Below are positions 7,676 through 28,555 of a stretch of DNA of 28,555 nt, in pieces. Under the pieces are notes generated by a model that saw only the letters and a program-made list of their open reading frames with translations, ran no database searches and was not told the DNA's origin. Numbering within the stretch: position 1 is the first letter of the stretch; every line of letters starts with the position of its first letter. The translations under genes and the position numbers were made by a program. This stretch comes from Alphaproteobacteria bacterium (lineage in GTDB: Bacteria; Pseudomonadota; Alphaproteobacteria; Rhizobiales; Beijerinckiaceae): assembly GCA_009921785.1 (NCBI GenBank), contig RFXE01000001.1:1-28555 (forward strand), written 5' to 3'.

Positions 7676-7789
7676 TCGCACGGCAAAACCTACCCAATTG
7701 AATTGAAAAACTTGCCCTATGAAAGAAGGCATCGCGCCGATCAATAAAATTTGATGCGTCATTTCAACGGTTTGTGATGGCTTCTCTGC

Positions 7790-7804
7790 TGGCATGCGGT
7801 TCGC
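7790..7804 (+). promoter_or_regulatory. Sigma54 (-24/-12) promoter for flgI
   Basis: TGGCATGCGGTTCGC has GG-N10-GC spacing and lies about 50 bp upstream of flgI, a sigma54 class III gene in Caulobacter. Confidence 0.65.
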
Positions 7805-7855
7805 TTTAGCAGAGGTGAGCCAATTTGAGCCTCTCAAGGCGCTGGAGAGACCCCC

Positions 7856-9767: not shown

Positions 9768-9902
9768 GGCAAGAAATTTTCAATTCAAATTCTAACTGTA
9801 ATTGAGGGATATTTCATACGATTTTTTTGGAGATTAGAGCCTATAACGAAGGTCCCTTGGTCACTCTCTTAAGGATTGACTCGATCTTGAGGACTTGAGC
9901 CC

Positions 9903-10277
9903 ATGACTTCCACCGCGATTCCTTCTTCCCTGAATAGGGTTTCCGTCGCGGACACCGAAACCGGCGTACCGCGCTTTCAGAATACAAAGACCGAAACACA
10001 AACTGAAGGGGACGAAAAAAACGCCCCCACCAAACCCGCCCCATCGGCCGAGGCTAAACCCGCTCCCAATGCTACGGTGAGACGCACAACAATCGACTGG
10101 GAAACCGGCTCAGTTGTCTTCCGTGTCATTGATGAACATAGCGGTCAGACAGTCAGCCAAAGCCCAGAAGAAGCGTTATTGCGCTTGCGCGCCTATGCAC
10201 GGCAAAATGAAACAACTGCGGATACCAATGCTGAACAGCCACAGCATTCGCCACCGCGGACGGAAAAGACCGTGTGA
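9903..10277 (+). CDS. FlaG-like flagellar protein with a low-complexity P/T/E-rich N-terminus
   Basis: IDWETGSVVFRVIDEHSGQTVSQSPEEALLRL resembles the FlaG core motif (V-x-VID-xx-(T/S)G-x-V-x-RQIP-xE-xL); lies next to the flagellin gene. Confidence 0.6.
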   Translation: MTSTAIPSSLNRVSVADTETGVPRFQNTKTETQTEGDEKNAPTKPAPSAEAKPAPNATVRRTTIDWETGSVVFRVIDEHSGQTVSQSPEEALLRLRAYARQNETTADTNAEQPQHSPPRTEKTV

Positions 10278-10291
10278 AAACGAGGGTACGA

Positions 10292-10307
10292 TTAAGAATT
10301 TGTTAAC
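10292..10307 (+). promoter_or_regulatory. CtrA full binding site upstream of flagellin
   Basis: TTAA-GAATTTG-TTAAC, an exact consensus match, in the intergenic region about 235 bp before the flagellin start. Confidence 0.75.
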
Positions 10308-10541
10308 GCTCGCGATGCGAGCTGCGCGATCATGATAAATCTGTTGCGTGCATTTTTTTGGTTGCACCAATAATTAAAATCAACCTCAAATTTTAATTTA
10401 CACTGAAATTTACCATATTCCTCGGGACTTTGCCGACTCTATGGAGTGGCACGCCTCCACCCATGATCCTTCTGCGCGCTGCAGGACGCAGCGTAACCTC
10501 GGAGCGAAACAAAGCTCCACTCATCAGAAGGATGAACACGA

Positions 10542-12095: not shown

Positions 12096-12122
12096 GCGGA
12101 ACGCGTATCCTGAAAGAACGAG

Positions 12123-12149
12123 AAAGCGGGGCTCCGGCCCCGCTTTTTT
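12123..12149 (+). terminator. Intrinsic (probably bidirectional) terminator after flagellin
   Basis: AAAGCGGGGC-tccg-GCCCCGCTTT followed by more T residues; lies between convergent genes. Confidence 0.85.
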
Positions 12150-12177
12150 AGATTGTTCTCTATTTGAACTGCTTATC

Positions 12178-12975
12178 TCAATTCATCGCCACCGCATTCG
12201 CCTTCGGCGCGTGAGGAACAAAAGCAGGGCCTGCGAATTGACGCCAAGCGGTTTCATCGCCCGCAAACACATTGCGATCAACATTACCTTTAATGCCCGG
12301 TACGCGACCTTGATCCGTATATTGCCACATGGCCCAGCGGCGATCACCGTAACGTTCATGCGGTTGCGCATTCACAGTGCGCACCCACAACGGATAATCA
12401 TGTAAATCACCATCGATGATATCGCGATAAAAATCGATCGTCGTATAAATCATTGGCTTTTTGCCATAGTGCTTTTCAACCGCAGTCAAAAAAGTGCGGA
12501 TCGATTTGAGCGCCTGATCGCGCGGCACTTTCTTCGGGCATTTTTCACTCGCGGCCCCATACCACTCGACATCGAGCACAGGCGGCAACGCATCTTTTTC
12601 AACGGGCACGTGATTAAAGAACCATTTGATTTGATCCTGCACCGGCCGACACCAATAATAGAAATGATAGGCGCCGCGCGGCACACCGGCATCCTTCGCC
12701 ATCATCCAATGAAGGGCGAAATTTTCATCGGCATGATCACCGCCCTCAGTCGCTTTGATATAAGCGAAGCGCGTGCCGCCTTTGCGTGCCTCATGCCAAT
12801 CAATCTGGCCCTGATAGCGCGACACATCAACGCCGTGAACTGGATAGACCTGCGCAACAGGGATCATGGCGGAAGAGGATCCGGATGAGGCCAGCGGCTT
12901 TTTGTCGAAGTTAAACCCCGAACATCCGGCGAGACCCGCCGTCATCGCGATTAGAAAGCCGGCGCGACGCGCCAT
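12178..12975 (-). CDS. GH25 lysozyme/muramidase, predicted lipoprotein
   Basis: HGVDVSRYQG, FAYIKATEG, GAYHFY, LPPVLDVEW, WQYTDQGRVPGIKGNVDRN; lipobox LAGC after a hydrophobic stretch. Start placed at ATG 12975 (alternative 12999). Confidence 0.92.
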   Translation of the reverse strand: MARRAGFLIAMTAGLAGCSGFNFDKKPLASSGSSSAMIPVAQVYPVHGVDVSRYQGQIDWHEARKGGTRFAYIKATEGGDHADENFALHWMMAKDAGVPRGAYHFYYWCRPVQDQIKWFFNHVPVEKDALPPVLDVEWYGAASEKCPKKVPRDQALKSIRTFLTAVEKHYGKKPMIYTTIDFYRDIIDGDLHDYPLWVRTVNAQPHERYGDRRWAMWQYTDQGRVPGIKGNVDRNVFAGDETAWRQFAGPAFVPHAPKANAVAMN

Positions 12976-13134
12976 GACAAAAAAACCAAAGCCCAACATT
13001 CTACCCCATCCCACATTCACATTTGAACGCGTGATGTGGCACAAAAAATTTTAATAAATCGGTAACAAATCAATTTTTTTAATTAGACGCATTTTTGTTT
13101 CGATTAACCGGTACCCACTTAATCGCAAAATGCG

Positions 13135-14547
13135 TTAGCTCAAACCAAACCACAGCGTCGCAATCCCCAAAAAGGAGAAAAATCCGACAACATCGGTGAC
13201 TGTTGTGACGAATACGCCCGACGAAACCGCTGGATCGGCACGGAACCGCTCAAGTGTTAAGGGGATCAGGATACCACCCAAAGCACCGGCCACGAGATTA
13301 ACCGTCATGGCGAGCGAAATCACAAAGCCGATATTCCAATCTTGGAACCAGACTGACGCGATAGCCGCGGTGATAATCCCAAAAGCGAGTCCGTTCAAAA
13401 GACCGACGAAGGTTTCGCGGAAGGTCACGCGAATGGCATTGGCCGCACTCAGCTCACGCGTCGCAAGTGCACGCACGGCTACGGTCATGGTTTGTGTCGC
13501 GGCAACACCGCCCTGCCCCGCCACAATGGGTGCTAACACCGCAAGTGCCACCATCTTGGCAAGCGAGGCTTCAAACAAACCCAAAACGGATGAGGCTAAA
13601 AACGCCGTGAGGAGGTTCACGAAGAGCCAACCAAAACGGCTCTTCGTTGTTTCAAGAATAGAGTCAGAGAGTTCTTCTTCGCCGCGCACACCACCGAGCG
13701 CTTTGATTTCTTCGTCAGCTTCTTCCTGGATCACGTCAACGATGTCGTCGATGGTGACAACGCCCAACAAGCGATTGTCTTCATCAACAACCGGAACTGA
13801 AACAAGATTATAACGCTGGAAAAGACGCGCAACATCCTCACCATCATCTGTCGCTTCAACGCGCCGACGGTCGGCATTCATCAAGTCCTCGATCCGCGCC
13901 GTGCGCCGCGCGCGCACAAGACGGTCGAGAAATACATTGCCTAAAAGATGATAGGACGGATCAACAACAAAGACTTCGAAAAAACTATCCGGCAGATCAG
14001 GCGTTTCCGCGAGATGATCGATCACCTGCCCCGCTGTCCAGAAGGGTGGCACCGCAATCAAATCCGTCTGCATCAGACGACCGGCAGAGCCTTCGGGATA
14101 ATCAAGGCTCTTTTGTAGCGCGACACGATCAAGTGCTGGCAGCGCGTCAAGAATTTCGGCCTGATCTTCTTTATCGAGATCTTCGAGAATATAGACCGCG
14201 TCATCGCTCTCGAGTTCGCGTACCCCTTCGACAAGTGTCTCGGTGTCGAGCTCTTCGAGAATTTCTTCACGCACTGCGTCATCAACTTCCGTGAGCGCGG
14301 CAAAGTCGAAGGCCGGACCAAGAAGCTCAATGAAGGTCGGACGCTGATCATGATCAATGGCTTCAAGCAATGTCGCCTGATCGGCTTCATGAAGATCGGT
14401 AACGAGCGCGCCCAGCGCATCGGCATCGCCGCTTTCAAGCGCCGTTTCGACAAGAGCAAGGAAGCGCGGATCGAGCGCGCCTTCCTCGTCACGGAACGCG
14501 GGCGGTGGGGCTGAGGGGCCCGACGATAAATGGGTATGATCGGTCAT
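13135..14547 (-). CDS. mgtE: Magnesium transporter MgtE
   Basis: Acidic N-domain, CBS pair (YPEGSAGRLMQ, YNLVSVPVVD, TIDDIVD) and transmembrane region (GQGGVAATQ, DPAVSSGVFVTTVTDVVG). Confidence 0.96.
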   Translation of the reverse strand: MTDHTHLSSGPSAPPPAFRDEEGALDPRFLALVETALESGDADALGALVTDLHEADQATLLEAIDHDQRPTFIELLGPAFDFAALTEVDDAVREEILEELDTETLVEGVRELESDDAVYILEDLDKEDQAEILDALPALDRVALQKSLDYPEGSAGRLMQTDLIAVPPFWTAGQVIDHLAETPDLPDSFFEVFVVDPSYHLLGNVFLDRLVRARRTARIEDLMNADRRRVEATDDGEDVARLFQRYNLVSVPVVDEDNRLLGVVTIDDIVDVIQEEADEEIKALGGVRGEEELSDSILETTKSRFGWLFVNLLTAFLASSVLGLFEASLAKMVALAVLAPIVAGQGGVAATQTMTVAVRALATRELSAANAIRVTFRETFVGLLNGLAFGIITAAIASVWFQDWNIGFVISLAMTVNLVAGALGGILIPLTLERFRADPAVSSGVFVTTVTDVVGFFSFLGIATLWFGLS

Positions 14548-14958
14548 GCGCCCCTCCCGCTCCGCTTGCGGATCAAGGCGTCTTTAGGCGCATGATCGAA
14601 GCTTGGCAACCTTGGATCGTCGAATGAACAATGGGCTGCACCCGATCAATCGGACAAAAAGTAATTTTGATTTTGAACCTGCGCTGTCATCTTTCACGAA
14701 TTAGAAGGGATTATAACATGCGCAAACAGCAGCAGCTTGATTCATCCGTTCACGCCGATCAGAGCGCGTTTTTTTCGGTCAATTGGATAGGCGAAGTCAA
14801 AGCGCACTCGTTTGCGGCGCCAAGAAAAAAATAAAAAACCCCGCACGCCCTTAAGGCGCGTCCACGCGTTCGAATTATCGAGAGAACACGAAAGTCATGG
14901 TGCGCCTCAAATCAAAAAAATGAGAACACATATCGTATTGAATTTTCAATATAATTTT

Positions 14959-15690
14959 GGGTCTTGCCTAGCTGAGTGAGGGAAAAACCGTCTAAGGCTA
15001 TGGAAAGACATGAAAAATCGCTACTTTGTCCGTTCACGCATTTTTGAAGCCAAATTTCGCGAGATTGTCCGCTACTTTTCGGTTGATCTCACCGCGCTGC
15101 AAGCTGCAGCGTTGAGCGGCGTAAATCGCAATACGATCAATAGAATCTATCGCGATTTACGTGCGCGCATTGGCTAGGTTTGCGTTGTCCAGCGACCAAT
15201 GTTTTGCGTTGTCGAGGTCGATGAAAGCCTGTTCGGCGCAAAGCGGGTCAAGGGCAAACGAGGGCGTGGTGCCTATGGAAAAACGACTGTCTTCGGCGTC
15301 TTTGAAAGGGAGAGACAAGTCTATACCGAGATTGTCCCGAATAGCTCAAAAGCCACGTTACAAGGCATTATTCGAGGTCGGGTTGATGTATCAACCGTGA
15401 TTAATTCCGATGGTTGGCGAGGCTATAACGGGCTCGTCGACTTAGGCTATGGACACTTTCGAATAGATCATTCGAAGGACGAGTTCTCAAAAGGCGGTGT
15501 CCATATCAATGGGATCGAGGGCTTCTGGGGATTTGCAAAAGTCAGGCTCGCCAAATTTAAAGGCATCACCGATGCAACGTTCCATCTTCACCTGAAAGAA
15601 ACAGATTGGCGCTTCAATCATCGCCATTCCGACAAATGCAAAACCTAGCTAAAATACCTCCGAAAATCACCGCTTAACTAGGCAAGACCC
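14959..15690 (+). mobile_element. IS1595-family (IS1016-like) insertion sequence, 732 bp
   Basis: Terminal inverted repeats GGGTCTTGCCTAGctgagtg and (reverse complement) GGGTCTTGCCTAGttaagcg, 13 bp perfect and 17/20 overall. Flanked by a TAATTTT direct repeat (14952-14958 and 15691-15697). Contains a DDE transposase frame. Confidence 0.9.
15010..15681 (+). pseudogene. IS1595-family transposase with two in-frame amber stops
   Basis: The frame from ATG 15010 reads MKNRYFVRSRIFEAKFREIVRYF...ARIG*VCVVQRPMFCVVEVDES...SDGWRGY...HINGIEGFW...KCKT*LKYLRKSPLN*; TAG at 15175 and 15646. Confidence 0.88.
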
Positions 15691-15986
15691 TAATTTTATT
15701 CTCAGCAGTTCCTCCGGCTCCCATCGCTATAGAAGCTGACATAGCTTACGGTACTCGACACGACTTGGAGTCATCCGCACCGGCCGCAAAAATTCAGCTC
15801 CAACTGCCGTGCGTATCTCAGGCAATCCTCGAGCGAATTTCGAAACTGAGCCATACCCAAACTCTCCCAATCAAACCCCGTTAATTACTCATATTCAGGG
15901 GGACTAAGACACGGGCGCGGGGTCGAAGATTCCAGGTACATTGACTGGAATACTGGAAAAGCAGCCTTTTGTTCCATATAGACCAA

Positions 15987-16015
15987 TTGACATAAACACT
16001 TACTATTGGTAAAAT
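15987..16015 (+). promoter_or_regulatory. Sigma70-type promoter upstream of the ADH-ALDH pair
   Basis: TTGACA-N17-TAAAAT, overlapped by ACCAAT...ATTGGT inverted half-sites. Confidence 0.65.
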
Positions 16016-16259
16016 TATATTATGTAAGCTCAAAAATTTTCCGGAATTCAGTTCGGAGGTTAAGACACCCCCCTTTTTGTAAGCAACAGATGCTTGTGAG
16101 CGCCTGTTTATGAACGTGCGACTTATCATGTTGATTACCACGATCATGGACGGCGGATAAAAGTCGGCATCTTAGGCAGCCCTGGGACACGGGCTGGATA
16201 GCGACCCTTATAACTCCCGAAAATTAAGGCGCCGAGCGCTTTTCATAAGAAACTTAACA

Positions 16260-17441
16260 ATGAAAAAAGATGATCTAACGATGATTGCCTCATATGACTG
16301 GGGATTTCCGGTGCCTATTGCCTACGGGCTAGGACGTCTGGCCGAAATCGGGCAGCACTGCATAGGCTTGGGCATCGACAATCCCATGATCGTGACTGAT
16401 AGCGGCAGCCGTGACTTGCCCTTCATCGGACGGCTACAATCCTCTCTTCATGATGCAGGGCTGACGTCGTCCCTGTTTTCGGACATTTCGCCAAATCCGC
16501 TGGATAGCGAGATAGGTTCGGGGCGTGCTGCCTTCATTAAGGGCGGCCATGACGCGATCATCGCGATCGGCGGTGGCAGTGCCATGGATGGCGGTAAGGC
16601 TATTTGCCTTACCGCGCACAACGATTTTGACCTTTGGGCTTTTGAATATGAACAGCCTGTTCCCGTAATGATGCAGGGGCACCGGTTTCCTGCTCTGATC
16701 ACCATCCCTACGACAGCCGGCACCGGAGCCGAAACCGAAAGCACCGCCATGATCACCCATGCGGCCAAGGGCATGAAGTTCTGCGTTTGGCACCCAGACT
16801 TAAAACCCGCAGTGGCCGTGCTGGACCCGGAACTGACCGTTGGTCTGCCAAAAAATCTTACTGCCTGGACAGGGGCCGATGCACTTGTTCATGCTATCGA
16901 GGCGTATCTGGTGCCGAGCTTCCATCCATTGTGCGATGGCTTAGCGCTGGAAGGATTAGCGCTCATTACGAAATGGCTGCCCGTCGCCGTAGAGGAGCCA
17001 GAGAACTTAACCGCAAGAGGCGGCATGCTGATGGGGTCATGCCTTGCCGGGATTGCTTTCCTGAAGGGCCTTGGGCTTGTCCATGCTATTTCCCATATGA
17101 TCGGGGCGGAATTTAACACGCAGCACGGTCTGACCAATGCGATACTTCTGCCGGTGGTGCTGCGTTTCAATCTGCCCGGTCAGGAGGATAAGGTTCGCCG
17201 GATGGCGCAAGCAATGAACCTGTCAGACAACTCGGTAGAAGGCTTAATTTCAGCAGTCGAACTCCTTCTAAACAAGATCGGGATACCGAAGTCGTTAGGC
17301 GAAATTGGCGTCCCTACCGATAGCGCTGCAAGGATCGCCGAAAAGGCACTGAAAGACAGTGCAGCCCGCTCTAACCCCCGCGTTGCCACGCTGACTGAAG
17401 TTCGTGGGTTGATCGAAATCGCAATCGCAAAGGCACGCTGA
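16260..17441 (+). CDS. Iron-containing alcohol dehydrogenase (alternative start 16281)
   Basis: IAIGGGSAMDGGK, IPTTAGTGAE, and metal ligands DALVHAIEAY, HAISH, HGLTNA. Confidence 0.93.
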   Translation: MKKDDLTMIASYDWGFPVPIAYGLGRLAEIGQHCIGLGIDNPMIVTDSGSRDLPFIGRLQSSLHDAGLTSSLFSDISPNPLDSEIGSGRAAFIKGGHDAIIAIGGGSAMDGGKAICLTAHNDFDLWAFEYEQPVPVMMQGHRFPALITIPTTAGTGAETESTAMITHAAKGMKFCVWHPDLKPAVAVLDPELTVGLPKNLTAWTGADALVHAIEAYLVPSFHPLCDGLALEGLALITKWLPVAVEEPENLTARGGMLMGSCLAGIAFLKGLGLVHAISHMIGAEFNTQHGLTNAILLPVVLRFNLPGQEDKVRRMAQAMNLSDNSVEGLISAVELLLNKIGIPKSLGEIGVPTDSAARIAEKALKDSAARSNPRVATLTEVRGLIEIAIAKAR

Positions 17442-17457
17442 TAGTAGGGTCGGAAAA

Positions 17458-18885
17458 ATGCAGAACCTGACGAAATTCTTTATTGGTGGCGAATGGGTCA
17501 AACCATTGTCGTCTGCGACCTTGCCAATTCTAAACCCTGCGACTGAGGAGCCGATCGGCACTGTTGCTATGGGTATCTCTGAAGACGTGGATTCCGCAGT
17601 GAAGGCCGCAAAGGCCGCATTCACAGCCTTCTCTGTCACCTCTAAACAGGAGAGACTTCACCTTCTCTACCGATTGAAAGCTGCGACCGAAAGGCGTCTC
17701 GAGGATCTGGCACAGGCCATGCGGATCGAGATGGGCGCGCCGATAACAATGGCGAGGTCCGCGCAAGCAGATGCAGCCATTGGCCATCTGCGAGGCTTCA
17801 TCGAAGCGCTGCAAGAGCTTGAAGAGAGCAAAGTGCTCGCTAATGGCGATATCCTTTTACGCGAACCGATCGGTGTCTGTGGGCTTATTACTCCCTGGAA
17901 CTGGCCGATTAACCAGATTGCGCTCAAGGTCATTCCCGTTCTGGCCACAGGATCAACGTGTGTCCTAAAGCCTTCGGAACACACACCGATCTCGGCCATG
18001 ATTTATGCTGAAATCATTGACGAGGCCGGCTATCCGCCTGGGGTATTTAATCTGGTAAACGGGGATGGCCCCACGGTGGGTGCGGCCCTTTCGCGACATC
18101 CTGAAATTCAAATGATGTCCTTCACAGGATCAACTAGGGCTGGAATCGCTGTTACCCATGATGCCGCCGAAACCGTGAAGCGCGTGACGTTGGAACTGGG
18201 AGGAAAATCGCCGAACCTAGTTTTTTCCGACTGCAAGCTCGAGGAGCGTGTGGCAGCCTCCGTTCGGGAATGTATGTTCAACACTGGTCAGTCGTGCGAC
18301 GCGCCGAGCCGGCTTTTGGTCGAACGATCATGCTACGACGAGGCGCTTCGGATTGCCAAACTGACAATAGATTCCGTCAAGGTCGGTGACCCAGAGCAAA
18401 CGGGCGACCATATCGGACCTCTCTTCGATAAGATTCAATTTGACCGCGTGCAGTCCATGATCGAAGCGGGTCTTGCCGAGGGCGCGACGCTTCTGGCAGG
18501 TGGCCTCGGTAAGCCAGATGGAGTCACCACCGGATGGTTTGCCAAGCCTACGATATTTGCCGACGTGTCAAACCATATGCGGGTCGCCCAGGAAGAGATA
18601 TTCGGTCCCGTGCTCGTCATCATTCCGTTTGATGACGAGGATGATGCAATTGCTATTGCTAATGACACGCCATACGGGCTGGCCGCCTATCTGCAAACGG
18701 GTGATCCGGAGAGGGCGCTGCGGGTCGCCAAACGTCTGCGTGCTGGGGCTGTTCACATAAACGGTGGTGGTTTCAACTATGGCTCGCCTTTTGGCGGCTA
18801 TAAGCAGTCGGGGAACGGCCGCGAAGGAGGAATAATGGGATTGGAAGATTACCTCGAAACCAAAACGCTGCATGGAATGAGCTAA
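17458..18885 (+). CDS. NAD(P)-dependent aldehyde dehydrogenase
   Basis: ITPWNWP, KPSEHTP, SFTGST, LELGGKSP, catalytic Cys in GQSCDAP, EEIFGPV, FGGYKQSGNGRE. Confidence 0.95.
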   Translation: MQNLTKFFIGGEWVKPLSSATLPILNPATEEPIGTVAMGISEDVDSAVKAAKAAFTAFSVTSKQERLHLLYRLKAATERRLEDLAQAMRIEMGAPITMARSAQADAAIGHLRGFIEALQELEESKVLANGDILLREPIGVCGLITPWNWPINQIALKVIPVLATGSTCVLKPSEHTPISAMIYAEIIDEAGYPPGVFNLVNGDGPTVGAALSRHPEIQMMSFTGSTRAGIAVTHDAAETVKRVTLELGGKSPNLVFSDCKLEERVAASVRECMFNTGQSCDAPSRLLVERSCYDEALRIAKLTIDSVKVGDPEQTGDHIGPLFDKIQFDRVQSMIEAGLAEGATLLAGGLGKPDGVTTGWFAKPTIFADVSNHMRVAQEEIFGPVLVIIPFDDEDDAIAIANDTPYGLAAYLQTGDPERALRVAKRLRAGAVHINGGGFNYGSPFGGYKQSGNGREGGIMGLEDYLETKTLHGMS

Positions 18886-19089
18886 AAAGGCCTAGTATTC
18901 GATTCAAGGTCGCAAAACTTGCCCTGCCCAAGAGGTATGGGTTTAATCTAGGACATCAAGCATGCTTAAGACCTAGTTTTGAGGGATTTCGATGAGATAT
19001 CAGATATCGAAAGGGTCTAATGCCGAATAGACAAAGGATATTATTCATTGTCCGGATCGGCTTTTATATCACTCGGGGAAATTCAAATT

Positions 19090-19596
19090 ATGTCGCTTAC
19101 GCTTTACGATATGTCCGTGCCAGTTTTTGTCCAATCGCTTACGGCACTCGCCGATGTTCTCAAAAAAGCCGAAGCACATGCGGATGCGCACAAAATTGAG
19201 CATACGGTTTTTCTGAACGCGCGCCTCGCTCCTGATATGTTCGCATTGACGAGACAGGTTCAACTCGCAACCGATTTCGCAAAAGGCGGATCGGCCCGTG
19301 TCTCGGGCGTTGACACGCCGAGCTATTCCGACACGGAATCGACCTTCGCTGAACTCTATGGACGGATCGAGAAGACGATCGCCTTCATCACGTCAATCCC
19401 GAAGGAAAAATTCGTCAACGCCGAAACGCGCGATATCCTCGTTCCGTTGCGACCCGAGCCGCGGACATTCAATGCACTTGTGTACTTACGTCACGGCGCG
19501 CTCGCCAATTTCTTTTTCCATACGACGACGGCCTATGCCATTCTGCGTCATAATGGTGTCGAACTTGGAAAGCGTGATTATCTCGGAACCTATTGA
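19090..19596 (+). CDS. DUF1993 family protein
   Basis: LNARLAPDMFALTRQVQLATD, DTESTFAELYGRI, NFFFHTTTAYAILRHNGVELGKRDY. Start placed at ATG 19090. Confidence 0.9.
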   Translation: MSLTLYDMSVPVFVQSLTALADVLKKAEAHADAHKIEHTVFLNARLAPDMFALTRQVQLATDFAKGGSARVSGVDTPSYSDTESTFAELYGRIEKTIAFITSIPKEKFVNAETRDILVPLRPEPRTFNALVYLRHGALANFFFHTTTAYAILRHNGVELGKRDYLGTY

Positions 19597-20451
19597 TGCC
19601 ATACGCGTAATGCTGACATTTAACCCCGCCATTCTGGCTAACCTTGCTGTTATGGCGGGGCTCATCGCGTCGTAGTCCGCGATGGCCATCAAAGAGCCGC
19701 CCTTCGCTGTCGTTGAACAGGACGGCTAATTTGAATTTCGTGACTATGCACTGATTCTTGCGGCCGAAGTAACGGTCAAAAATTGTGATGACCGCTCCTA
19801 TCACTCAGAATGCTGAGAATCGCAAAAGCGAGACAATCGTCATTACAGTGCTCGTGACGAAAAACGCAATCGGCAATCAATGGAAGATCCATTCATGATG
19901 CCGAGGACTTACACGAAAGTAACATTGCCGAAGCTAAATGACTCTCGAATTTTATTTGTCTAAATACCAGCCCTATGCGTTGTTGTTTTGAAATTCTCCG
20001 GCCTCTGTACGGGTGGCAATCCGAATGCGCGAAATGAAAAGTGCTGGTTGGCGCGCTCAATAATAAAAATTTCATTATTAATAAAAATAAAACCTTTCTT
20101 CGCGTTGTTTTAAAATTAAATATGTCTTGCAATCGTGAATTTTGGATCATAAATGAATGATTTTCACCGCGATCTTCAATAATGCTATAAGCAACCAGTA
20201 AGAAGCTTTTCCTTTCCAGCGCAATTTCGGATCATCTCGATTTCAATTCAGAAGTTTTGTTTAGTTGTCGTACAATTAATTAGCGTCCAAAATTTGGAGG
20301 CTTATTAAAAATAAGTGTTTTTGAATAACGAATTTTTGGGTGAGCAATTTGCAAAAGAGTAGCTATAAGAACTTTGCAACTCTTTAAAACTTTTCACGTC
20401 GAGAAATTGAAATTTTGAAAATCTTGAACCCATTGATATCATTTTGAAAAA

Positions 20452-20494
20452 TAGTGGAGCTGAGCGGAATCGAACTGCTAGCCTCCTCATTACG
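20452..20494 (-). pseudogene. Orphan degenerate 3' half of a tRNA-Ala (probably CGC), att-site scar
   Basis: The minus strand reads CGTAATGAGGAGGCTAGCAGTTCGATTCCGCTCAGCTCCACTA: anticodon loop/stem remnant, variable loop, T-arm with GTTCGAT and Ala-type acceptor end GCTCCAC(C>T)A. No D-arm or 5' half is present. Confidence 0.8.
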
Positions 20495-20596
20495 CCTGAA
20501 AGACTTTTAGTTTGATTCGACGTCTGAAGGCTAGATTAATTAGAAATTACTTTAACAAGCATCATTGTTTCTAGCCTAGTCAGTTGTTCAACCCCA

Positions 20597-20959
20597 TTAA
20601 AGAGCCTTTACGATATCCCTGTGAAACTCTTTCAGGTGGGTTTGAGCCCACCTCGCAAGTTCCTCAACGATAGGTCGCAGCGCTTTACCGCTTTCTGTTA
20701 AACGGAAGGCGTTATTGCGAGCGCTCGCTTGCGGGTTCGTTCGCTCGATTAGTTTTAGGTTAGTAAGCAGTTCGAGCCTCGTGGCGAGGATATTTGTCGA
20801 GATGCGCTCTTTCGACCCAAGAAACTCCGAATAGGTGCGGGTTCCGTATATCAATAAGTCACGAATAATCAGAAGCGACCACTTGTCTCCGAGCACGTCG
20901 AGCGCGGAACTGATCGGGCAAACGGAACGCCAATCGAGTCCTTCCATCCTATCCTTCAC
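20597..20959 (-). CDS. HxlR-family winged-helix transcriptional regulator
   Basis: CPISSALDVLGDKWSLLIIRDL, ISTNILATRL, FRLTESGKALRPI; GGAG 7 nt before GTG 20959. Confidence 0.92.
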   Translation of the reverse strand: MKDRMEGLDWRSVCPISSALDVLGDKWSLLIIRDLLIYGTRTYSEFLGSKERISTNILATRLELLTNLKLIERTNPQASARNNAFRLTESGKALRPIVEELARWAQTHLKEFHRDIVKAL

Positions 20960-21082
20960 AAATCCACTCCAACCTCACTCTGTCTTAACCAATCTACCCG
21001 CGTTGGCTCACTTAGTTGACTTCACGCCCGCGCCCCGTTCCGGTCAAGTCCATCAGTTGCTAGGCTATGGCCATGCCCATCC

Positions 21083-21493
21083 TTATCGAGCCAAGTAGTG
21101 GATAACAATCTGCCAGACATAGACCAACATGGAAACCTGAGCGACCGCAAAAACAGCAGTGCGCAAATAGGGAATCCCAGCGATATAGACTACAGCATGC
21201 AGAATGCGAGCGATGAGGAGCACGATACCTGCAACAAACGTAATGCCATTCGTAGCACCCGTGACGCAGGCGATACCGATGACAGCCGCATATATTGCGA
21301 GGTTGTCGGCGAGATTGCTATGCGCGCGCACCGCCCGGCCACCCCAAGGGGCAACGCCCTCAAGCACTGTGTCACGATTGTAGAAGATCCATTTTATGCC
21401 TCCGGGAACTGATCCGCGCGCGACGACAGGAGGCAAAGTGAGGATTTCTGTGAGCAATGCGAGCGATAACAAAATCCATAAATCAGGTGTCAT
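21083..21493 (-). CDS. MAPEG family membrane protein
   Basis: RAVRAHSNLADNLAIY, ARILHAVVYIAGIPYLRT; four hydrophobic segments. Confidence 0.85.
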   Translation of the reverse strand: MTPDLWILLSLALLTEILTLPPVVARGSVPGGIKWIFYNRDTVLEGVAPWGGRAVRAHSNLADNLAIYAAVIGIACVTGATNGITFVAGIVLLIARILHAVVYIAGIPYLRTAVFAVAQVSMLVYVWQIVIHYLAR

Positions 21494-21553
21494 TCCGTTT
21501 TTCCTTCTGAGTTGTTAAGGGGTATTAGATGCACTTTTTTCGATGCTGATGAT

Positions 21554-22537
21554 CTATTGTGAAATCGATGCCGCCATGTCTCGGAAGGAGACCTCCATCG
21601 GAGTGGGCTTCCACTTCAGCACCTCGAATGTCGCGCTATTGTTGTAAGAGGCTGCCTTTCCAATAAAAGGCAGCATTCCCTTCACTTCGCGGTCGAACAG
21701 GCCCATGATTTTCAAAAGTGTAGTCGGCGCTTTGCGAGAAGGAACCTTCGTGTAGCCCGCTTCTTTAAGAACGTCCGCTACAGTGATCATGTCGATCGGT
21801 TCGGCAGTAGCTGCAATAAACCGCTTACCCGCAGCATCTTTGGCCGTCATCGCCTCGACGTGGAGACGAGCGACATCGCGAACATCAACCATGCCCATGC
21901 TCATATCGGGAACCATTGGCATCTTTCCACCAATCATAGCGGTCATTAACCCCACGCTCTGTCCGTCCATTTTCGCGCCCAGAGACGGCCCGAACACCGC
22001 GCCCGGGTTTACAACCGTGAGTTCCATATTTCCTGCCTTGACAGCATTCCACGCGGCACGTTCGGCCAAGGTTTTGCTCTTGGCGTATGCACCAATGTTT
22101 GCCTCAGTATTGGACCAGGAATCTGGCCCGTAGCGCCCCGTGTCCTTTCCCGCGATTATCGCAAAGGTTGATGATGTAAGAACTAGGCGTTTGACACCTT
22201 CGCGTTGGGCCGCAGTAATAACCCGCTTGGTTCCTTCGACCGCAGGAGCGATCAGTTCATTCTCATCCTTTGGCTCTTTGAGCAGGAAGGGAGATGCAAC
22301 ATGTATCGCGAAAGAGCAGCCTTTCATCGCCTCACCCCAACCAGGGTCTGAGAGAAGATCAGCTTCGACGAAGCTCAACCGATCAATCGGAGCAACCTTT
22401 GCAAGCGCCTCACGGGTGGCATCTGACTTAGCGCGAGATCGGATCGTTCCGATAACTTCATAGCCCTGCCTTAGCAGTTCGGCAGCACAGTGCTGCCCTA
22501 TGTATCCAGTCACCCCGGTCAGCAAAACACGTTCCAT
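21554..22537 (-). CDS. NAD-dependent epimerase/dehydratase-type SDR (aldehyde reductase / dihydroflavonol reductase-like)
   Basis: LLTGVTGYIG, HVASPF, LIAPAVEGT, YAKSKTLAE (YxxxK), VNPGAVFGP, VDVRDVA. Confidence 0.9.
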   Translation of the reverse strand: MERVLLTGVTGYIGQHCAAELLRQGYEVIGTIRSRAKSDATREALAKVAPIDRLSFVEADLLSDPGWGEAMKGCSFAIHVASPFLLKEPKDENELIAPAVEGTKRVITAAQREGVKRLVLTSSTFAIIAGKDTGRYGPDSWSNTEANIGAYAKSKTLAERAAWNAVKAGNMELTVVNPGAVFGPSLGAKMDGQSVGLMTAMIGGKMPMVPDMSMGMVDVRDVARLHVEAMTAKDAAGKRFIAATAEPIDMITVADVLKEAGYTKVPSRKAPTTLLKIMGLFDREVKGMLPFIGKAASYNNSATFEVLKWKPTPMEVSFRDMAASISQ

Positions 22538-22567
22538 CTTCTCAAACTCCCATCTAGGCCGAATGAA

Positions 22568-22615
22568 TTAACTTGTGAAATGCAAGTTAAATGTTATTAC
22601 TTTCAAAAAGCAAGT
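22568..22615. promoter_or_regulatory. Tandem palindromic operator sites upstream of the SDR-MAPEG-HxlR unit
   Basis: TTAACTTG-N7-CAAGTTAA perfect palindrome (22568-22590) and a second ACTT-N9-AAGT site (22599-22615). Confidence 0.6.
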
Positions 22616-22815
22616 TTTTTCTCGTCCTTCTAGAATTTTTCAATAAGAGCATTGTGTTTTGGTATTTTGCGGGACAGCGATAAGTTCTGCTTTTCGCTAT
22701 CAAAACCGTCAGAATAGACCTTTATATTTGAGTTAAGGACTTACAATTAGGATGCTCTTGAGCCTAGCATGACCGATGAAGGAGCCCGAACAACAAAGGT
22801 AATCGCCAAAACGGC

Positions 22816-23622
22816 TTAGCTCTTAGGACGCACGCGCGAAGCCGTTCCCTTGATAAAATCGTCTAGGCGCGCTCGGGCAGCAGGTTGAGTATTGACTACC
22901 CCTGCAATGACAGCCTCGGCATAGGAAGCGTCGAGTGCGGACATATTACCGAGATGGCTAATGGCCGAACAGATTGCAAAATTGCTAAGGGGGAGGTTCT
23001 GCGCGGCTTTGGCTGCCAAGGTGAGGGCTGCATCAAGGCTTGACCCTTCGACCAAATACTCCGCGAGGCCAACATCGACCGCCTCTTGCCCTTGATAAAC
23101 GCGCCCGGTTAACATCATGTCGATCATCCGTGCCTTGCCCACCAGACCCGCGACACGGATCGTTGCACCACCACCAGTGAACAGGCCACGCTGACCCTCG
23201 GGCAAAGCAAAATAGGTCGAATTGTCCATGACGCGAACATGCGCGGCACTGGCAAGTTCCAAACCTCCGCCCACGACTGCGCCCTTCAAGGCTGCGATGA
23301 TAGGCACACCGCCGTATTCCATCTTGTTGAAAGCTTCATGCCAGCGCATGCAGATATGCATGAAATCGGAGGGGCTTCGGTCAGCCTGATGATGTTCCGC
23401 CAGATCGAGGCCCGCGCAGAAATGATCACCTGATGCTGCGAGTACAATAGCACGCACTCCGGCGCGTGGGGCAGTCGCGAAAAACTCAACAAGCTCTTCG
23501 ATCGTGTACGAATCTAGCGCGTTGCGTTTAGTCGGACGGTTCAATGTGACCACCCAGACGCCGTCGTCGCCGGCAACAATGTCAAGGTTTTTGAAGCGCG
23601 ATAAATCAATTTGGATGCCCAT
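22816..23622 (-). CDS. dmdD: Crotonase-family methylthioacryloyl-CoA hydratase/hydrolase (DmdD)
   Basis: [53 protein letters not shown] and FALPEGQRG (both catalytic Glu), [18 protein letters not shown]...RVRP; closely matches Ruegeria pomeroyi DmdD as I recall it. True start ATG 23622 (268 aa). Confidence 0.88.
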
Positions 23623-23653
23623 GTTGCGGTCCTGTTTTGTAAGGGTAAAGGGA

Positions 23654-25336
23654 TCAGAAATAAGCGCCCGAAAGACTTGCGGCACCGCAAATGGCACGCA
23701 CTCGTTGAAGGCCGGTCTCGATGAGAATGTGGTTAAGGTAGAATCGTGCCGTTGAGATCTTGGCCTCAAGAAAGGTGCGGTCTGCAACACTTCGCAGGCT
23801 CGCCTCGGCGGCAAGAAGTATACGCGCCATTTGCCAGCCTGCCACCAAATTGCCTGCCAGCATTAGATATGGCACCGCAGCGCCGTACGCATCAATTGAG
23901 GTGCAGGTCAACAAGTGAGCGACCACGGCCTGAAAATCCTGCCGAGCGGCACTCAAACGAAGAGCCGCTTCTTGCGCAAATGGTACCCCGTGCTGCAATT
24001 CCGCTTCGGTTTCGACAATCATCGCGCAGAGGCGACCAGCGATCGAGCCGCCGTCACGCAAGGTCTTTCTTCCCAAGAAATCATTTGCCTGGATAGCGGT
24101 CGTGCCCTCGTAGATCGGTAAGATGCGAGCATCGCGGTAATACAGTGCTGCCCCTGTTTCTTCAATAAACCCCATTCCACCATGAATTTGCACGCCAAGC
24201 GATGCGACCTCTATAGCCATTTCGGAGTTGAAACCCTTGACGAGCGGTACTAGAAATTCCACCAGCGCTGTGTCGCCCCGATCCTGACAACCGGCCGTAT
24301 AAATGGCCAAAGCTCGACAGGCTTCAGTGGTGGCCCGCATATGCATCGCCATACGGCGCACGTCGGGATGGTTGATGATGGTGACTGCGCCAGTAGCATG
24401 GCCGTCAATCGGACGACCTTGAAGGCGGTCCCTCGCATAGCTCATGGCCTGTTGCGTGGCGCGTTCGGCAATTGCCACGCCCTGCACGCCGACTGCAAAA
24501 CGGGCGGCGTTCATCATGGTGAACATGTATTCCAACCCAGCATTTTCCTGGCCGATCAGAAAGCCCGTTGCGCCCTCGAAAGATAGAACGCAGGTTGGGC
24601 TTGCACGGACACCAAGTTTGTGTTCGATTGATTGGCATAGGACAGCGTTCCGCTCGCCATCCGCTAGGATCTTCGGCACCAGAAACAGACTGATCCCCTT
24701 TATCCCCTTCGGCGCCCCCGGTGTGCGGGCGAGGACGAGATGAATTATGTTTTCTGCAAGATCATGCTCCCCATAGGTGATAAATATCTTGGTGCCACTC
24801 AGCTTGTAGGTACCGTCCGTCAGTGGTTCAGCCTGAGTGCGGAGCAGCGACAGATCGCTACCGGCCTGTGGCTCCGTCAGGTTCATCGTTCCGGTCCAAA
24901 CCCCTGCAACAAGTTGCGGCAGGTAGGTGGCTTTTATCTGCTCCGATCCAAAATGTTGAAGCGCTTCGATAGCTCCATCGGTCAGCAGAGGGCAAAGTGC
25001 AAAGCTCAAGTTAGCAGCGTTCAGGATTTCACCCGCAGCAGCCCCGACCGTGCGCGGCAGACCCTGACCGCCATATTCTAAGGGGTGCAGCAATCCCTGC
25101 CAGCCCATCGCGACGAATTTGTTGTAAGCTTCGCGAAAACCCTTTGGAGTGGTCACCTGACCCGAATTGTAAATCGAGCCTTCGCGATCACCCGGCGCGT
25201 TCAGCGGTGCTATCTCTTCGGCACAAAAGCGGCTTAGCTGTTCAAGTATCGTAGTAGCCATATCCAGATCCACCTCGCCGAGCGTAATATGGGCAAGGTT
25301 GAACAGAATGTCTTGCAAAGGGGCTTCATAGGTCAT
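23654..25336 (-). CDS. dmdC: Acyl-CoA dehydrogenase, MMPA-CoA dehydrogenase (DmdC) type
   Basis: [87 protein letters not shown]; directly upstream of dmdD, as in R. pomeroyi. Confidence 0.85.
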
Positions 25337-26949
25337 GGCTGCACCCCCAAGTCGCGGGCGGCGGCGCGCAGCATAAACTTCTGAATCTTACCAGTGGCAG
25401 TTTTGGGTATGGGGCCAAAGACCACAGTCTTCGGAGCTTTGAAATGGGCAATACGATCGCGACAAAAGGTGATGATCTCGGCCTCGGTCGTGGCGGCACC
25501 CTCGCGCAGCTCGACAAAGGCGCAGGGGCTTTCGCCCCATGTGGCATGCGGGCGGGCAACCACCGCCGCCGCCAGAATGCAAGGATGGCGATACAGCACT
25601 GCTTCTACCTCGATGGAAGAGATGTTCTCACCGCCGGAAATGATCACATCCTTTAAACGGTCGCGGATTTGCAAGTAGCCGTCAGAATGGATTACGGCGG
25701 CATCGCCGGACCAGAACCAGCCACCGGCAAATGCCTCAGATGTGGCGGCCGCGTCTTTGTAATATCCCTTCATCACCGTATTGCCGCGAATAGCGATTTC
25801 GCCTTGGGAAATGCCGTCGCGCGGCACATCCTCCCCGGTTGCGCGGTCCACAACGCGAATGTCCTCTACCATCGGAAAGCAGACGCCCTGCATCGCCTGC
25901 TTTTCGGCACGCGCAGCGGCAGGCAAAGCGTCCCACTCCTCTTGCCACAAACACTGCGCGATGTGGCCGTAGGTTTCCGTCAATCCATAGACCTGCATCA
26001 CGTCTAGCCCCAAGACCGCCGCCTTCTCCAGTGTCGCGGGCGGTGGCGGCGCACCCGCCGTTAGCACTCTGATCTTTGGCTCAAACGTCAGCGCCTCGGC
26101 TTCAGCGCTGTCACAAAGCATTTGCAGCACGATGGGGGCAGCCCCCAGATGGGTCACATTGTGTAACGCCATCGCTGCCAACAACTTTGCGGGCGTCGTG
26201 TCTCGGGTAAAGATGATATGACCGCCGACGATCGCTATGGCCCAGGGGTGGTTCCACCCGTTGCAATGGAACATCGGCACGACCGAAAGATAGGTTGGAT
26301 GCGGCGGCAAAGCCCATCCCGCCACCGCGCCCATTGCCATCAGATAAGCTCCGCGATGATGATAGATTACTCCCTTGGGCCGCCCCGAAGTGCCCGAGGT
26401 ATAATTGAGCGCCAGGGCTTGCCATTCATCGGTGGGCAAAGTCCAAGCCATCGGCGGATGCGTCACCAGACCGTCATAAGTTGTCTGGCCGAAGCCCGTT
26501 CCGGAAACATCGCAGATATCAACGACTGGAATTACGTTGCCATTGATCGCGAAGGCGGCACGCAGCAAGGGCGCGAATGTGGTATCGGCGATCACAAGCC
26601 GTGCATCCGAATGGCTAAGGATGTATGCGACCGTTTCGGGCTCAAGCCGTGTGTTAATCGTATTCAGCACTGCGCCCGAAAGCGGCACGGCGTAGTGCAG
26701 TTCGAACAGTTCGGGAATGTTCGGAGCCAACACGGCGATCGTATCCCCTGTCCCGATGCCCATTTCTGCCAGACCCGCCGCGACACAACGGCAACGGGTG
26801 CTGGTTTCACCCCAAGTCCGGCGAATATCGCCATAGGTCACGGCGGGCAGGTTTGCATAAACCGTCTCGGCCCGCTTCAAGAAAGACAGTGGCGACAGTG
26901 CCACGTGGTTGGCGGCGGCACGCATAGGGGAATCATAGTGCTGCTGCAT
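25333..26949 (-). CDS. dmdB: Acyl-CoA synthetase, MMPA-CoA ligase (DmdB1-clade-like)
   Basis: ANHVALSPLSFLKRA, LNYTSGTSGRPKGVIYHHRGAYL, VVPMFHCNGWNH, QVYGLTETYG, DRLKDVIISGGENISS, PKTATGKIQKF; ATGA overlap with dmdC. Start placed at ATG 26949. Confidence 0.78.
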   Translation of the reverse strand: MQQHYDSPMRAAANHVALSPLSFLKRAETVYANLPAVTYGDIRRTWGETSTRCRCVAAGLAEMGIGTGDTIAVLAPNIPELFELHYAVPLSGAVLNTINTRLEPETVAYILSHSDARLVIADTTFAPLLRAAFAINGNVIPVVDICDVSGTGFGQTTYDGLVTHPPMAWTLPTDEWQALALNYTSGTSGRPKGVIYHHRGAYLMAMGAVAGWALPPHPTYLSVVPMFHCNGWNHPWAIAIVGGHIIFTRDTTPAKLLAAMALHNVTHLGAAPIVLQMLCDSAEAEALTFEPKIRVLTAGAPPPPATLEKAAVLGLDVMQVYGLTETYGHIAQCLWQEEWDALPAAARAEKQAMQGVCFPMVEDIRVVDRATGEDVPRDGISQGEIAIRGNTVMKGYYKDAAATSEAFAGGWFWSGDAAVIHSDGYLQIRDRLKDVIISGGENISSIEVEAVLYRHPCILAAAVVARPHATWGESPCAFVELREGAATTEAEIITFCRDRIAHFKAPKTVVFGPIPKTATGKIQKFMLRAAARDLGVQP

Positions 26950-26959
26950 GGCGCACCCG

Positions 26960-28063
26960 TTACAGGAAGGGCAGTTCGACCAGTTTGGCTGCAACCTCAC
27001 CCTGATCGCGCTGAATTATCACGGTCTCGCCCACCGGAACGGTTGCATCGATCAAAGCATAACCGATATTCGCCTTCATGCGGGGCGACCAGACACAGTT
27101 CGTCATCACGCCAACGCGATGGCCGCTTCGGGTGATGTCCTCGCGGCGGAAGCCCAAGGGGGCGGACGCCGAACCCTCAAGCACTAAGCCCAATTGGTGA
27201 CGTTTTACCCCCTCGGCTTTAATTCGACGCAAGGCGTGAATCCCCACCACATCATCAGATACATCAAGATCGACATATTTACCCAAGCGAACTTCGAATG
27301 GGTTGGTCAGATCGTCCGTGTCACCACCCACCGACACCAATCCACTTTCCGTTCTCTCCGCGGTCGCGGGCGCACCGGGTCCGATGCCCCAAGGCCGGCC
27401 GGCCTCTTTAAATATGTTCCACAACTCGGTGCCGCGCGAACCATCTTTCAGATAGATCTCGAACCCGCCTTGCTTCGACCAACCCGATCGCTGAACCGCT
27501 ACCGGAATTCCATTAATCTCGGTCTCGCGGAACCAGAAGTATTTCAGCCCGCGGACCCAGTCGCCTATCACATGGGCCACCACATCCTCAGCCATTGGCC
27601 CCTGCAGAGCCATTGGCGAAACGTCGGGTTCCGAGATCTCGACATCTAGGCCCCGCTCGGCGGCGATGGCGCTAGCCCAGAACCAGATGTCGCTGTCTGC
27701 AATCGACAACCAGTAAAGATCATCGGCTAGCTTCAAAAGGATAGGGTCATTGATGATCGTACCGCGATGGTTGCAAAGGGGCACGTATTTACCTTGCCCG
27801 ACTTCGCATTTCGACAGATCGCGAGGGCTAAGAATTTGTGCTAAGCGGCCAGCATCCGCTCCCTTCAGCTGCACCTGACGCTCAACCCCAACATCCCATT
27901 GCGAGACGCCGTTGATCAGCCGCCAGTATTCGGCCTCGGGGTCGCCGTAGGAAGTGGGCATGATCATTCGGTTGTAGACATTTGCCGCTTTCAGCCCGTC
28001 CGTAATGGCAGCCTCGAAAAAGGGAGAAGGTCTGATGCGTGTGTTGGGCTGAAAGGAAAACAC
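26960..28063 (-). CDS. dmdA: GcvT-fold THF-dependent methyltransferase, DmdA-like (divergent DMSP demethylase clade)
   Basis: VYNRMIMP, WDVGVERQV, NDPILLKL, WLSIADSD, EPDVSPMALQGP and RSGWSKQGGFEIYL (DmdA-type). GGAG 6 nt before GTG. First gene of the dmdBCD operon. The family call is firm; the substrate is not. Confidence 0.72.
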   Translation of the reverse strand: MFSFQPNTRIRPSPFFEAAITDGLKAANVYNRMIMPTSYGDPEAEYWRLINGVSQWDVGVERQVQLKGADAGRLAQILSPRDLSKCEVGQGKYVPLCNHRGTIINDPILLKLADDLYWLSIADSDIWFWASAIAAERGLDVEISEPDVSPMALQGPMAEDVVAHVIGDWVRGLKYFWFRETEINGIPVAVQRSGWSKQGGFEIYLKDGSRGTELWNIFKEAGRPWGIGPGAPATAERTESGLVSVGGDTDDLTNPFEVRLGKYVDLDVSDDVVGIHALRRIKAEGVKRHQLGLVLEGSASAPLGFRREDITRSGHRVGVMTNCVWSPRMKANIGYALIDATVPVGETVIIQRDQGEVAAKLVELPFL

Positions 28064-28202
28064 GTCTTACTCCACTGCTTTCATGAACTCGAAGCTCCTT
28101 AAACGCTTCCGTCAAACGAGGTTCGTCCCCAGAAGTTGACATTTTTGCGTTGCACTTGATGCCCAACTTATCTTTTTTGTATCATCACCTATAAAAATTA
28201 CT

Positions 28203-28244
28203 ATTAGTCAATAATTTATGTCAAGTTATAAATTATTGACTAAT
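28203..28244. promoter_or_regulatory. Perfect 17-bp inverted repeat upstream of the dmd operon
   Basis: ATTAGTCAATAATTTAT-gtcaagtt-ATAAATTATTGACTAAT. Confidence 0.75.
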
Positions 28245-28555
28245 GCATAGTATTTGGACAATTGAGAATCCCACGCCTTTCTTGCGGCCGACGCTTCAAT
28301 TAAGATGTGAGCATCCCACGGGCTCGAGAAGGTTTACGATGCAACCTCTGATTTAGTCCTGAAGTATACAGCGTCCTATTTCGCTATTGTCACCGAAGTC
28401 CAGATCCTCGTCGATCGTTTTATAATTGAGCTTGTAAGGTCTGTTTTGCCAGTCGAGAGCGCTCAACGCTGAGAGGTCTCGTACTTGGGATTATGCCAGA
28501 CTTCCGTTTTAGCCGGGAAAATGGGCGCGCGACCTAGAATGTCATCGCTCAATTT

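Follow-up and report, generated by a model that had tools for sequence, protein, structure and literature searches.

Does contig RFXE01000001.1, from the genome of a freshwater alphaproteobacterium labelled Beijerinckiaceae, carry a working route from dimethylsulfoniopropionate (DMSP) to methanethiol? The window analysed here is the whole contig, 28,555 nt long; no DNA upstream of the genes in question can be read beyond the contig edge. The host metagenome-assembled genome (MAG) consists of 479 contigs (2.23 Mb) and is 79% complete. A first-pass annotation, made from the letters of the window alone, had interpreted four adjacent genes as a self-contained, horizontally moved operon in an unexpected host, led by a non-canonical demethylase. 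As judged from sequence and gene context, these genes probably constitute a functional, horizontally acquired operon for the coenzyme A (CoA)-dependent demethylation of DMSP to methanethiol. The operon is one member of a widespread family of freshwater and soil Alphaproteobacteria that is usually LysR-controlled, and in this genome it is located on an island without the LysR gene.

The four genes and the predicted pathway

The region 22816-28063 contains four intact, co-directional open reading frames (ORFs). Enzyme classes were assigned with Pfam and NCBIfam profiles, and they agree with those given in the first-pass annotation. In the list, MMPA stands for 3-methylmercaptopropionate.

26960-28063, minus strand: dmdA-like gene encoding a tetrahydrofolate-dependent methyltransferase of the GcvT fold (367 aa, GTG start; PF01571 and PF08669)
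25333-26949, minus strand: candidate MMPA-CoA ligase, an AMP-forming acyl-CoA ligase of the PRK08162 subfamily (538 aa)
23654-25336, minus strand: candidate MMPA-CoA dehydrogenase of the DmdC family (560 aa; PF02771, PF02770, PF00441, PF12806)
22816-23622, minus strand: predicted dmdD ortholog, methylthioacryloyl-CoA hydratase of the crotonase family (268 aa)

Base-by-base reading confirmed the three junctions. The dmdA-like gene ends with TAA at 26962-26960, 10 bp before the ligase ATG at 26949. The ATGA at 25336-25333 contains both the start of the dehydrogenase gene and the TGA of the ligase gene, and 31 bp separate the dehydrogenase TGA (23656-23654) from the crotonase ATG at 23622.

The gene set corresponds to the four reactions by which DmdA, DmdB, DmdC and DmdD convert DMSP in Ruegeria pomeroyi DSS-3 (reviewed in PMC5395565), as the first-pass annotation had proposed. 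The GcvT-fold enzyme would demethylate the sulfonium of DMSP once, with tetrahydrofolate as the methyl acceptor, leaving MMPA, and the PRK08162-type ligase would convert MMPA to MMPA-CoA. The DmdC-family flavoprotein would then oxidise MMPA-CoA to methylthioacryloyl-CoA, which the DmdD ortholog would hydrate and hydrolyse to methanethiol, acetaldehyde, CO2 and CoA.

The crotonase aligns with R. pomeroyi DmdD (PDB 4IZB) with 435 bits and about 78% identity over 261 residues. Its residues E122 and E142 correspond to E121 and E141 of 4IZB, so that both catalytic glutamates noticed in the first pass are indeed conserved. The protein passes the NF006013 model (370 bits, cut-off 232), and a tree computed from 72 related crotonases places it inside the long-stemmed DmdD clade (support 99). 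The same clade contains a roseobacter-type ortholog from genome G362, scoring 454 bits against 4IZB. DmdD orthologs are rare: among 400 evenly sampled Alphaproteobacteria one was found besides that of the host genome (79% identity), and the next best match has at most 54%. The crotonase is best considered a predicted true ortholog of DmdD.

In the crotonase tree the DmdD of G362 (loci L153/L164) nests among the copies from Mesorhizobium, with 87% identity. No dehydrogenase gene was observed within 9 kb of it, and thus it has no dmdC neighbour like that of the window. These observations hint that the marine DmdD has been exchanged with this operon family, in a direction that they leave open.

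The dehydrogenase scores 429 bits against DmdC of Roseovarius nubinhibens (6IJC) and about as much against two other solved acyl-CoA dehydrogenases; the score against 8PNS is 447 bits. PF12806 is present as an additional C-terminal domain. Of the residues of 6IJC, the catalytic Glu435 and Tyr434 are retained, as are Met161, Phe195, Phe287, Arg448 and most of those for FAD and substrate, whereas Thr170 is replaced by Ser and Ser197 by Thr (residue roles in DmdC 6IJC and in DmdB 6IHK follow PMC6850173). We consider this protein a candidate MMPA-CoA dehydrogenase of the DmdC family. A crotonase or a dehydrogenase outside DmdD and DmdC had been named in the first pass as an outcome that would speak against the pathway; both proteins group with these families.

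The ligase belongs to PRK08162 (NF006020: 770 bits, cut-off 677). It fails the model of 3-(methylthio)propionyl-CoA ligase, NF005426, by a wide interval (329.8 bits, cut-off 822), and scores 249 bits against R. lacuscaerulensis DmdB (6IHK). Equivalents of the 6IHK residues involved in adenylation and CoA binding (His231, Trp235, Arg432, Gly440/441, Glu442 and Lys523) are conserved. The initial label dmdB, if understood as orthology to the Ruegeria enzyme, had to be abandoned. However, a 1.3-Mb genome that is taken as SAR11-like from its size and gene content has a ligase of the same type near canonical dmdA, in the order dehydrogenase, ligase, one hydrolase gene, canonical dmdA. This ligase is assigned to PRK08162 with 853 bits and is 48% identical to that of the window.

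The nearest copy of the operon is found in the congener G015, with 95% DNA identity over 8 kb. For each of the four genes, dN/dS between the window and this copy is 0.08-0.31, and all four are under purifying selection between the two congeners.

The demethylase clade, its gene context and its substrate

Relatives of the demethylase are numerous. The databases contain over 100 clusters that share 82-98% identity with it, from Mesorhizobium, Aminobacter, Cypionkella, Tabrizicola and Paracoccaceae MAGs; in the NCBI annotation the homologs are labelled 'glycine cleavage system protein T'. Among cultured carriers, Mesorhizobium huakuii NBRC 15243, M. erdmanii and Aminobacter sp. NyZ550 have demethylases 84-87% identical to that of the window; Labrys neptuniae LMG 23578 and Gemmobacter denitrificans are further examples. 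A scan of one genome per species yielded 185 stretches with a gene for a relative. The best 80 of these all have 77-97% identity, so that at least 80 species-level genomes contain the gene at 77% or above. The hosts among these 80 are Paracoccaceae/Rhodobacterales, Mesorhizobium, Aminobacter, Labrys, Beijerinckiaceae, Rhizobiaceae and Sphingomonadales, represented mostly by MAGs from lakes, rivers, glacier-fed streams, soils and activated sludge.

Gene context was counted at 83 loci of the tight clade to which the window demethylase belongs. A divergent GcvA-like LysR gene is present at 63-66 of them, the DmdD-type crotonase at 60/83, the ligase at 44/83 and the dehydrogenase at 29/83. With A, B, C and D denoting demethylase, ligase, dehydrogenase and crotonase, and with layouts counted with or without LysR, the order A-B-C-D of the window occurs at 13 of the 83 loci, LysR-A-D at 12, A-B-D-C at 11 and A-B-D at 10. 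The A-B-D-C layout involves a second set of B, C and D genes, about 50% identical and found chiefly in Mesorhizobium. The rarity and the unexpected host suggested initially were thus not borne out, given the frequency of this order and the number of species concerned.

Loci of the A-B-D-C type (L041, L044, L054, L057, L059, L076 and L077 from Mesorhizobium, at about 8000-13200) encode B, D and C proteins 46-55% identical to those of the window. Their crotonase forms a clade separate from DmdD.

At nine Paracoccaceae loci the demethylase gene is directly followed by genes with PF09948 (DUF2182) and DUF1326, and the ligase gene is also present in most of them. The two genes were named dmdE and dmdF in a 2026 paper, where they were co-transcribed with dmdA-acuI and needed for growth of R. 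lacuscaerulensis on DMSP (PMC12992908). An acuI-like gene (acrylyl-CoA reductase, AcuI/YhdH family, TIGR02823, 441 bits) was found at seven tight-clade loci, namely five of the nine dmdE/dmdF loci and two others. The fullest loci, L035, L079 and L081, have the order A, DUF2182, DUF1326, ligase, acuI-like, DmdD, and at L081, from Tabrizicola, an OpuAC-type betaine ABC importer follows directly after DmdD. Homologs of dmdE, dmdF and acuI also flank canonical dmdA at the canonical loci that we collected. The products encoded beside the tight-clade gene and beside canonical dmdA are 41-52% (DmdE), 64-76% (DmdF) and 70-80% (AcuI) identical. The tight-clade gene sits in the same genomic slot as canonical dmdA, and we regard this as the best reason to expect the same function of it. 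At L079 and L081 (Paracoccaceae/Tabrizicola MAGs, about 7000-17100), a divergent LysR gene precedes the demethylase.

The demethylase itself aligns end to end with Pelagibacter DmdA (3TFH, 244 bits). It is 35-44% identical to canonical DmdAs, and 39-44% to those of the roseobacter type. A quick IQ-TREE tree was built from 83 rows, comprising the model-passing DmdAs from the 400 sampled Alphaproteobacteria, the tight clade and relatives with intermediate scores. The canonical DmdA clade (support 100) takes in 28 of the 30 model-passing rows. The tight clade joins a few sister sequences of 53-67% identity (support 97). Together with canonical DmdA and a few other groups it forms one clade (support 100) that excludes the other DmdA-like GcvT groups, with a branching order inside that the tree leaves open. 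Canonical DmdA has 82 columns with a conservation of 90% or more, and the tight clade retains 66 of them, a comparison that does not settle the substrate.

A number of observations weigh against the DMSP route. The demethylase scores 349.7 bits with the DMSP demethylase model NF009133, below the cut-off of 410. The tight clade to which it belongs (support 100) stands outside the canonical DmdA clade, and departs from it at the otherwise invariant positions H49R, Q55S, C92G, N234A and N248G (SAR11-type reference numbering). Several of these departing states are shared with sister groups that have no dmd neighbours; indeed, the loci of the nearest sister groups, at 53-67% identity, contained no dmd-type neighbours and nothing informative. 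In the dehydrogenase, His280, Lys281 and Arg284 of 6IJC, residues implicated in the handling of MMPA-CoA, are replaced by Asn, Ala and Glu; 8PNS and 8PNG, equally similar to it, also vary at some of these positions. The availability of DMSP in lakes is uncertain. No BCCT importer of DMSP, SBP56 methanethiol oxidase or LysR gene was found in the 79%-complete host MAG, an observation to which this incompleteness gives little weight. Finally, the activity of each enzyme and the compound on which the first one acts are inferred here.

Because of its score, its position outside the canonical clade and its departures at invariant positions, the tight-clade demethylase is taken here as a near relative of DmdA that by the curated tests is not a member. 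The first-pass description of a non-canonical demethylase agrees with both the score and the tree. Divergence of this degree has been described in SAR92, where DmdAs 35-40% identical to the ratified ones and peripheral to clades A-E complement an R. pomeroyi dmdA mutant, as seen in methanethiol production (PMC10746254).

One possibility is that the chemistry is the same and the substrate different. The lead enzyme would then demethylate another sulfonium or selenonium compound of fresh water or soil, such as dimethylselenoniopropionate or an analogue of DMSP, and the resulting thioether acid would be broken down by the ligase, the dehydrogenase and DmdD. The position of the clade outside canonical DmdA, its differences at several canonical-invariant residues and its mostly non-marine hosts would fit this. 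However, the biochemically characterised DmdD of R. pomeroyi, with which the crotonase shares about 78% identity, is tuned to methylthioacryloyl-CoA (kinetics quoted in PMC5395565); this fixes a three-carbon methylthio acyl-CoA as the intermediate, as DMSP yields, and the dmdE, dmdF and acuI neighbours match those at canonical dmdA loci. We regard a different substrate as rather unlikely.

Still less probable, to the point of being improbable, is that the last three genes form a catabolic module for methionine-derived MMPA or short-chain fatty acids, next to which a GcvT-like enzyme with an unrelated one-carbon role is merely co-located. MMPA can derive from methionine, and the LysR gene of the relatives is GcvA-like. 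Homologs of DmdB and DmdC have broad specificity and are widespread among bacteria that do not use DMSP (PMC5395565). However, the demethylase is the constant member of the loci and the ligase and dehydrogenase are the variable ones: A occurs with D at 60 of the 83 loci, including the 12 of the LysR-A-D layout. Moreover, the genes of the window are translationally coupled or at most 31 bp apart, and neither gcvH nor gcvP was found in the window or in the related loci.

We favour the DMSP route because of the orthology of DmdD, the clade shared with DmdA, the linkage over 83 loci and the dmdEF and acuI neighbours, and also because of the PRK08162 ligase at the SAR11-like dmdA, the SAR92 precedent, the low dN/dS and the Tabrizicola importer.

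The island, its acquisition and the possible expression of the operon

Two further features of the window concern the location of the operon and its possible control.

14612-28555, no strand: accessory, island-like segment; synteny with congeners stops at about 14.6 kb
28203-28244, no strand: inverted repeat, 17-nt arms pairing perfectly across an 8-nt spacer; candidate operator, located about 140 bp before the start of the dmdA-like gene

Synteny with 17 congeners extends from the flagellar genes through the MgtE gene and ends at about 14.6 kb, and 20486-28555 matches only G015 among them. The operon is present in one of the 17 other species of the host genus (genomes of 2-3 Mb). Besides the operon, the island contains a fragment of an IS1595 transposase, a pair of genes for an Fe-dependent alcohol dehydrogenase (Fe-ADH) and an aldehyde dehydrogenase, and DUF1993, HxlR, MAPEG and SDR genes. 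The operon has a GC content of 56-60%, compared with about 52% for the core part. Demethylases from Rhodobacterales and Hyphomicrobiales, two different orders, share 84-88% identity. Both observations fit horizontal spread, as does the lack of a LysR gene before the operon in this lineage.

The presence of the operon in one of 17 congeners and the integrase at the end of the relative's copy support horizontal acquisition on accessory DNA; together with the break in synteny they agree with the horizontally moved module of the first-pass annotation. The Hyphomicrobiales-type host that it had suggested is consistent with the MAG carrying the nearest copy, which NCBI labels Beijerinckiaceae.

The far side of the island could be read in G015 (L017, 1-7600). 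It contains a truncated GMC oxidoreductase gene, a BetI-type TetR gene, fragments of an ABC ATPase and of an AMP-binding enzyme, a malonyl-CoA decarboxylase gene, an HTH_17 gene and a tyrosine integrase. No tRNA genes were found in the window by ARAGORN.

Several smaller observations concern the segment and its border. The IS1595-family fragment at 14950-15697 has further copies on contigs C99 and C295 of the same MAG and in two congeners, and is missing at this site in G015. The region 19056-20507 (1.45 kb) is missing from the otherwise collinear copy of G015; it contains the DUF1993 gene and a spacer of low GC content (41% at 20-21 kb). Homologs of DUF1993 occur elsewhere in the congeners searched, at 67-76% DNA identity. 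Between the GH25 lysozyme and MgtE genes, at about 13073-13146, there is a repeat of about 50-70 nt resembling repetitive extragenic palindromic elements, which recurs with 84-96% identity at unrelated sites in congeners. The genes of the Fe-ADH and the aldehyde dehydrogenase lie at 16260-18885 of the accessory segment. Their products could dispose of the acetaldehyde that DmdD would release; NCBIfam gives neither protein a specific assignment, and thus none for acetaldehyde.

The 28203-28244 repeat overlaps a weak promoter-like match. In G015, two bases of one arm are changed and 15 of the 17 positions pair. The repeat is absent from the LysR-type loci. A BetI-type TetR gene is located 1.2 kb farther upstream of the repeat in G015. 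This lineage has lost or replaced the LysR gene typical of its relatives. The initial description of a unit with no regulator and no transporter therefore does not extend to the family, where most relatives have the GcvA-like LysR and one has the betaine-type ABC importer. For the window itself, the absence of a transporter and of a methanethiol oxidase was confirmed, whereas the absence of a regulator was not, as a single regulator gene, of the HxlR family, is present at 20597-20959, outside the operon.

This gene belongs to a neighbouring group, in which an SDR/epimerase gene (21554-22537) is followed by a MAPEG gene and the HxlR-family regulator gene. Upstream of the SDR/epimerase gene, at a distance of about 35 bp, there is an inverted repeat AACTTG-N7-CAAGTT (22570-22588).

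Almost all of the operon DNA is represented in lake, pond and freshwater metagenomes, which come from several studies, and in two runs with a marine label. Only four short contigs, identical or one base off, occur in two riverine metatranscriptome libraries, and they fall in the ligase, the dehydrogenase and dmdD; DNA carry-over is possible, and no junction-spanning transcripts were observed in these libraries. A metatranscriptome pile-up at 24480-24535 was rejected as a signal of the operon, since it derives from dehydrogenases of other organisms. MetH is represented in the host MAG by fragments on short contigs only.

The least probable reading, to which we give very little credence, is a silent or decaying passenger that lost its LysR activator on moving to an island built of fragments and is of no use to this host: the lack of an upstream LysR gene, the truncated GMC oxidoreductase gene and AMP-binding and ABC ATPase fragments adjoining the G015 copy, and the IS1595 fragment near the operon would agree with it, but the four ORFs are intact with low dN/dS against the congener copy, the AT-rich palindrome with its promoter-like site is conserved upstream, and near-identical contigs of three genes occur in the two riverine libraries, a weak point in view of possible DNA carry-over.

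Comparison with known systems and implications

The operon resembles the system of R. pomeroyi DSS-3 in its four enzyme classes, the pathway order, the orthologous DmdD and the DmdC-family dehydrogenase with the catalytic Glu. It differs in that the genes of R. pomeroyi are scattered, with dmdA co-transcribed with acuI (PMC12992908), whereas those of the window form one four-gene operon. Further differences are the sister-clade demethylase, the ligase of the PRK08162 rather than the PRK07008 type, and the host, a freshwater MAG labelled Beijerinckiaceae.

Contiguous demethylation genes have been published for the SAR92 strains HTCC2207, H921 and H231, in the order dmdA-acuH-dmdB-dmdC, with the arrangement in SAR11 HTCC1062 drawn alongside (Fig. 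5B of PMC10746254). A self-contained operon, presented at first as a novelty, is therefore not new as such. The window shares with these clusters the contiguity of the genes, and the DmdA of SAR92 is likewise divergent. However, they use AcuH where the window has DmdD, the gene order differs, and their hosts are marine Gammaproteobacteria and SAR11. The LysR divergon seen in the relatives of the window has not been described for the SAR92 and SAR11 clusters.

A third arrangement is the operon dmdE-dmdF-dinB-dmdA-acuI of R. lacuscaerulensis and other Roseobacters, with dmdR adjacent (PMC12992908). The Paracoccaceae relatives approach it, having dmdE-like and dmdF-like genes after the demethylase, with DmdF up to 76% identical, and an acuI-like gene at seven loci. 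The window itself lacks dmdE, dmdF and acuI and has the ligase and DmdD in the same operon. The regulators also differ, being GcvA-like LysR proteins in the relatives of the window and the GntR-type DmdR in the Roseobacter operon.

The pathway and every enzyme family are thus already known. What sets the operon apart is a demethylase from a sister clade, DmdD in the place of AcuH, mainly non-marine hosts and, among the relatives, a LysR divergon. The first-pass annotation had allowed that the operon might prove to be both described and common. Common it is; a literature search, with subscription journals largely outside its coverage, found no published description of this demethylase clade or operon.

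Surveys of DMSP degradation count dmdA by models of the marine clades A-E, and accordingly attribute demethylation to the sea, where Roseobacter, SAR11 and a few Gammaproteobacteria would carry it out. The clade considered here is linked to DmdD, a SAR11-type ligase, DmdC, dmdEF and acuI in Alphaproteobacteria from lakes, rivers, soils, nodules and wastewater. We see about an even chance that it is a genuine, unrecognised family of DMSP demethylases and, with DmdD, the ancestral home of a complete demethylation operon in freshwater and soil Alphaproteobacteria. For the host genome itself the operon is an ordinary horizontally acquired copy, and it is chiefly the entire clade that deserves attention, with the cultured carriers Mesorhizobium, Aminobacter, Labrys and Gemmobacter offering easy experimental access to it. 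If the clade demethylates DMSP, methanethiol formed from DMSP is under-counted in non-marine systems, and DmdD, considered rare, has its main reservoir outside the sea. Should the clade, with DmdD, also be that ancestral home, non-marine turnover of DMSP to methanethiol would be far more widespread than surveys of canonical dmdA indicate, and marine roseobacters would owe their rare DmdD to a loan from this family of operons.

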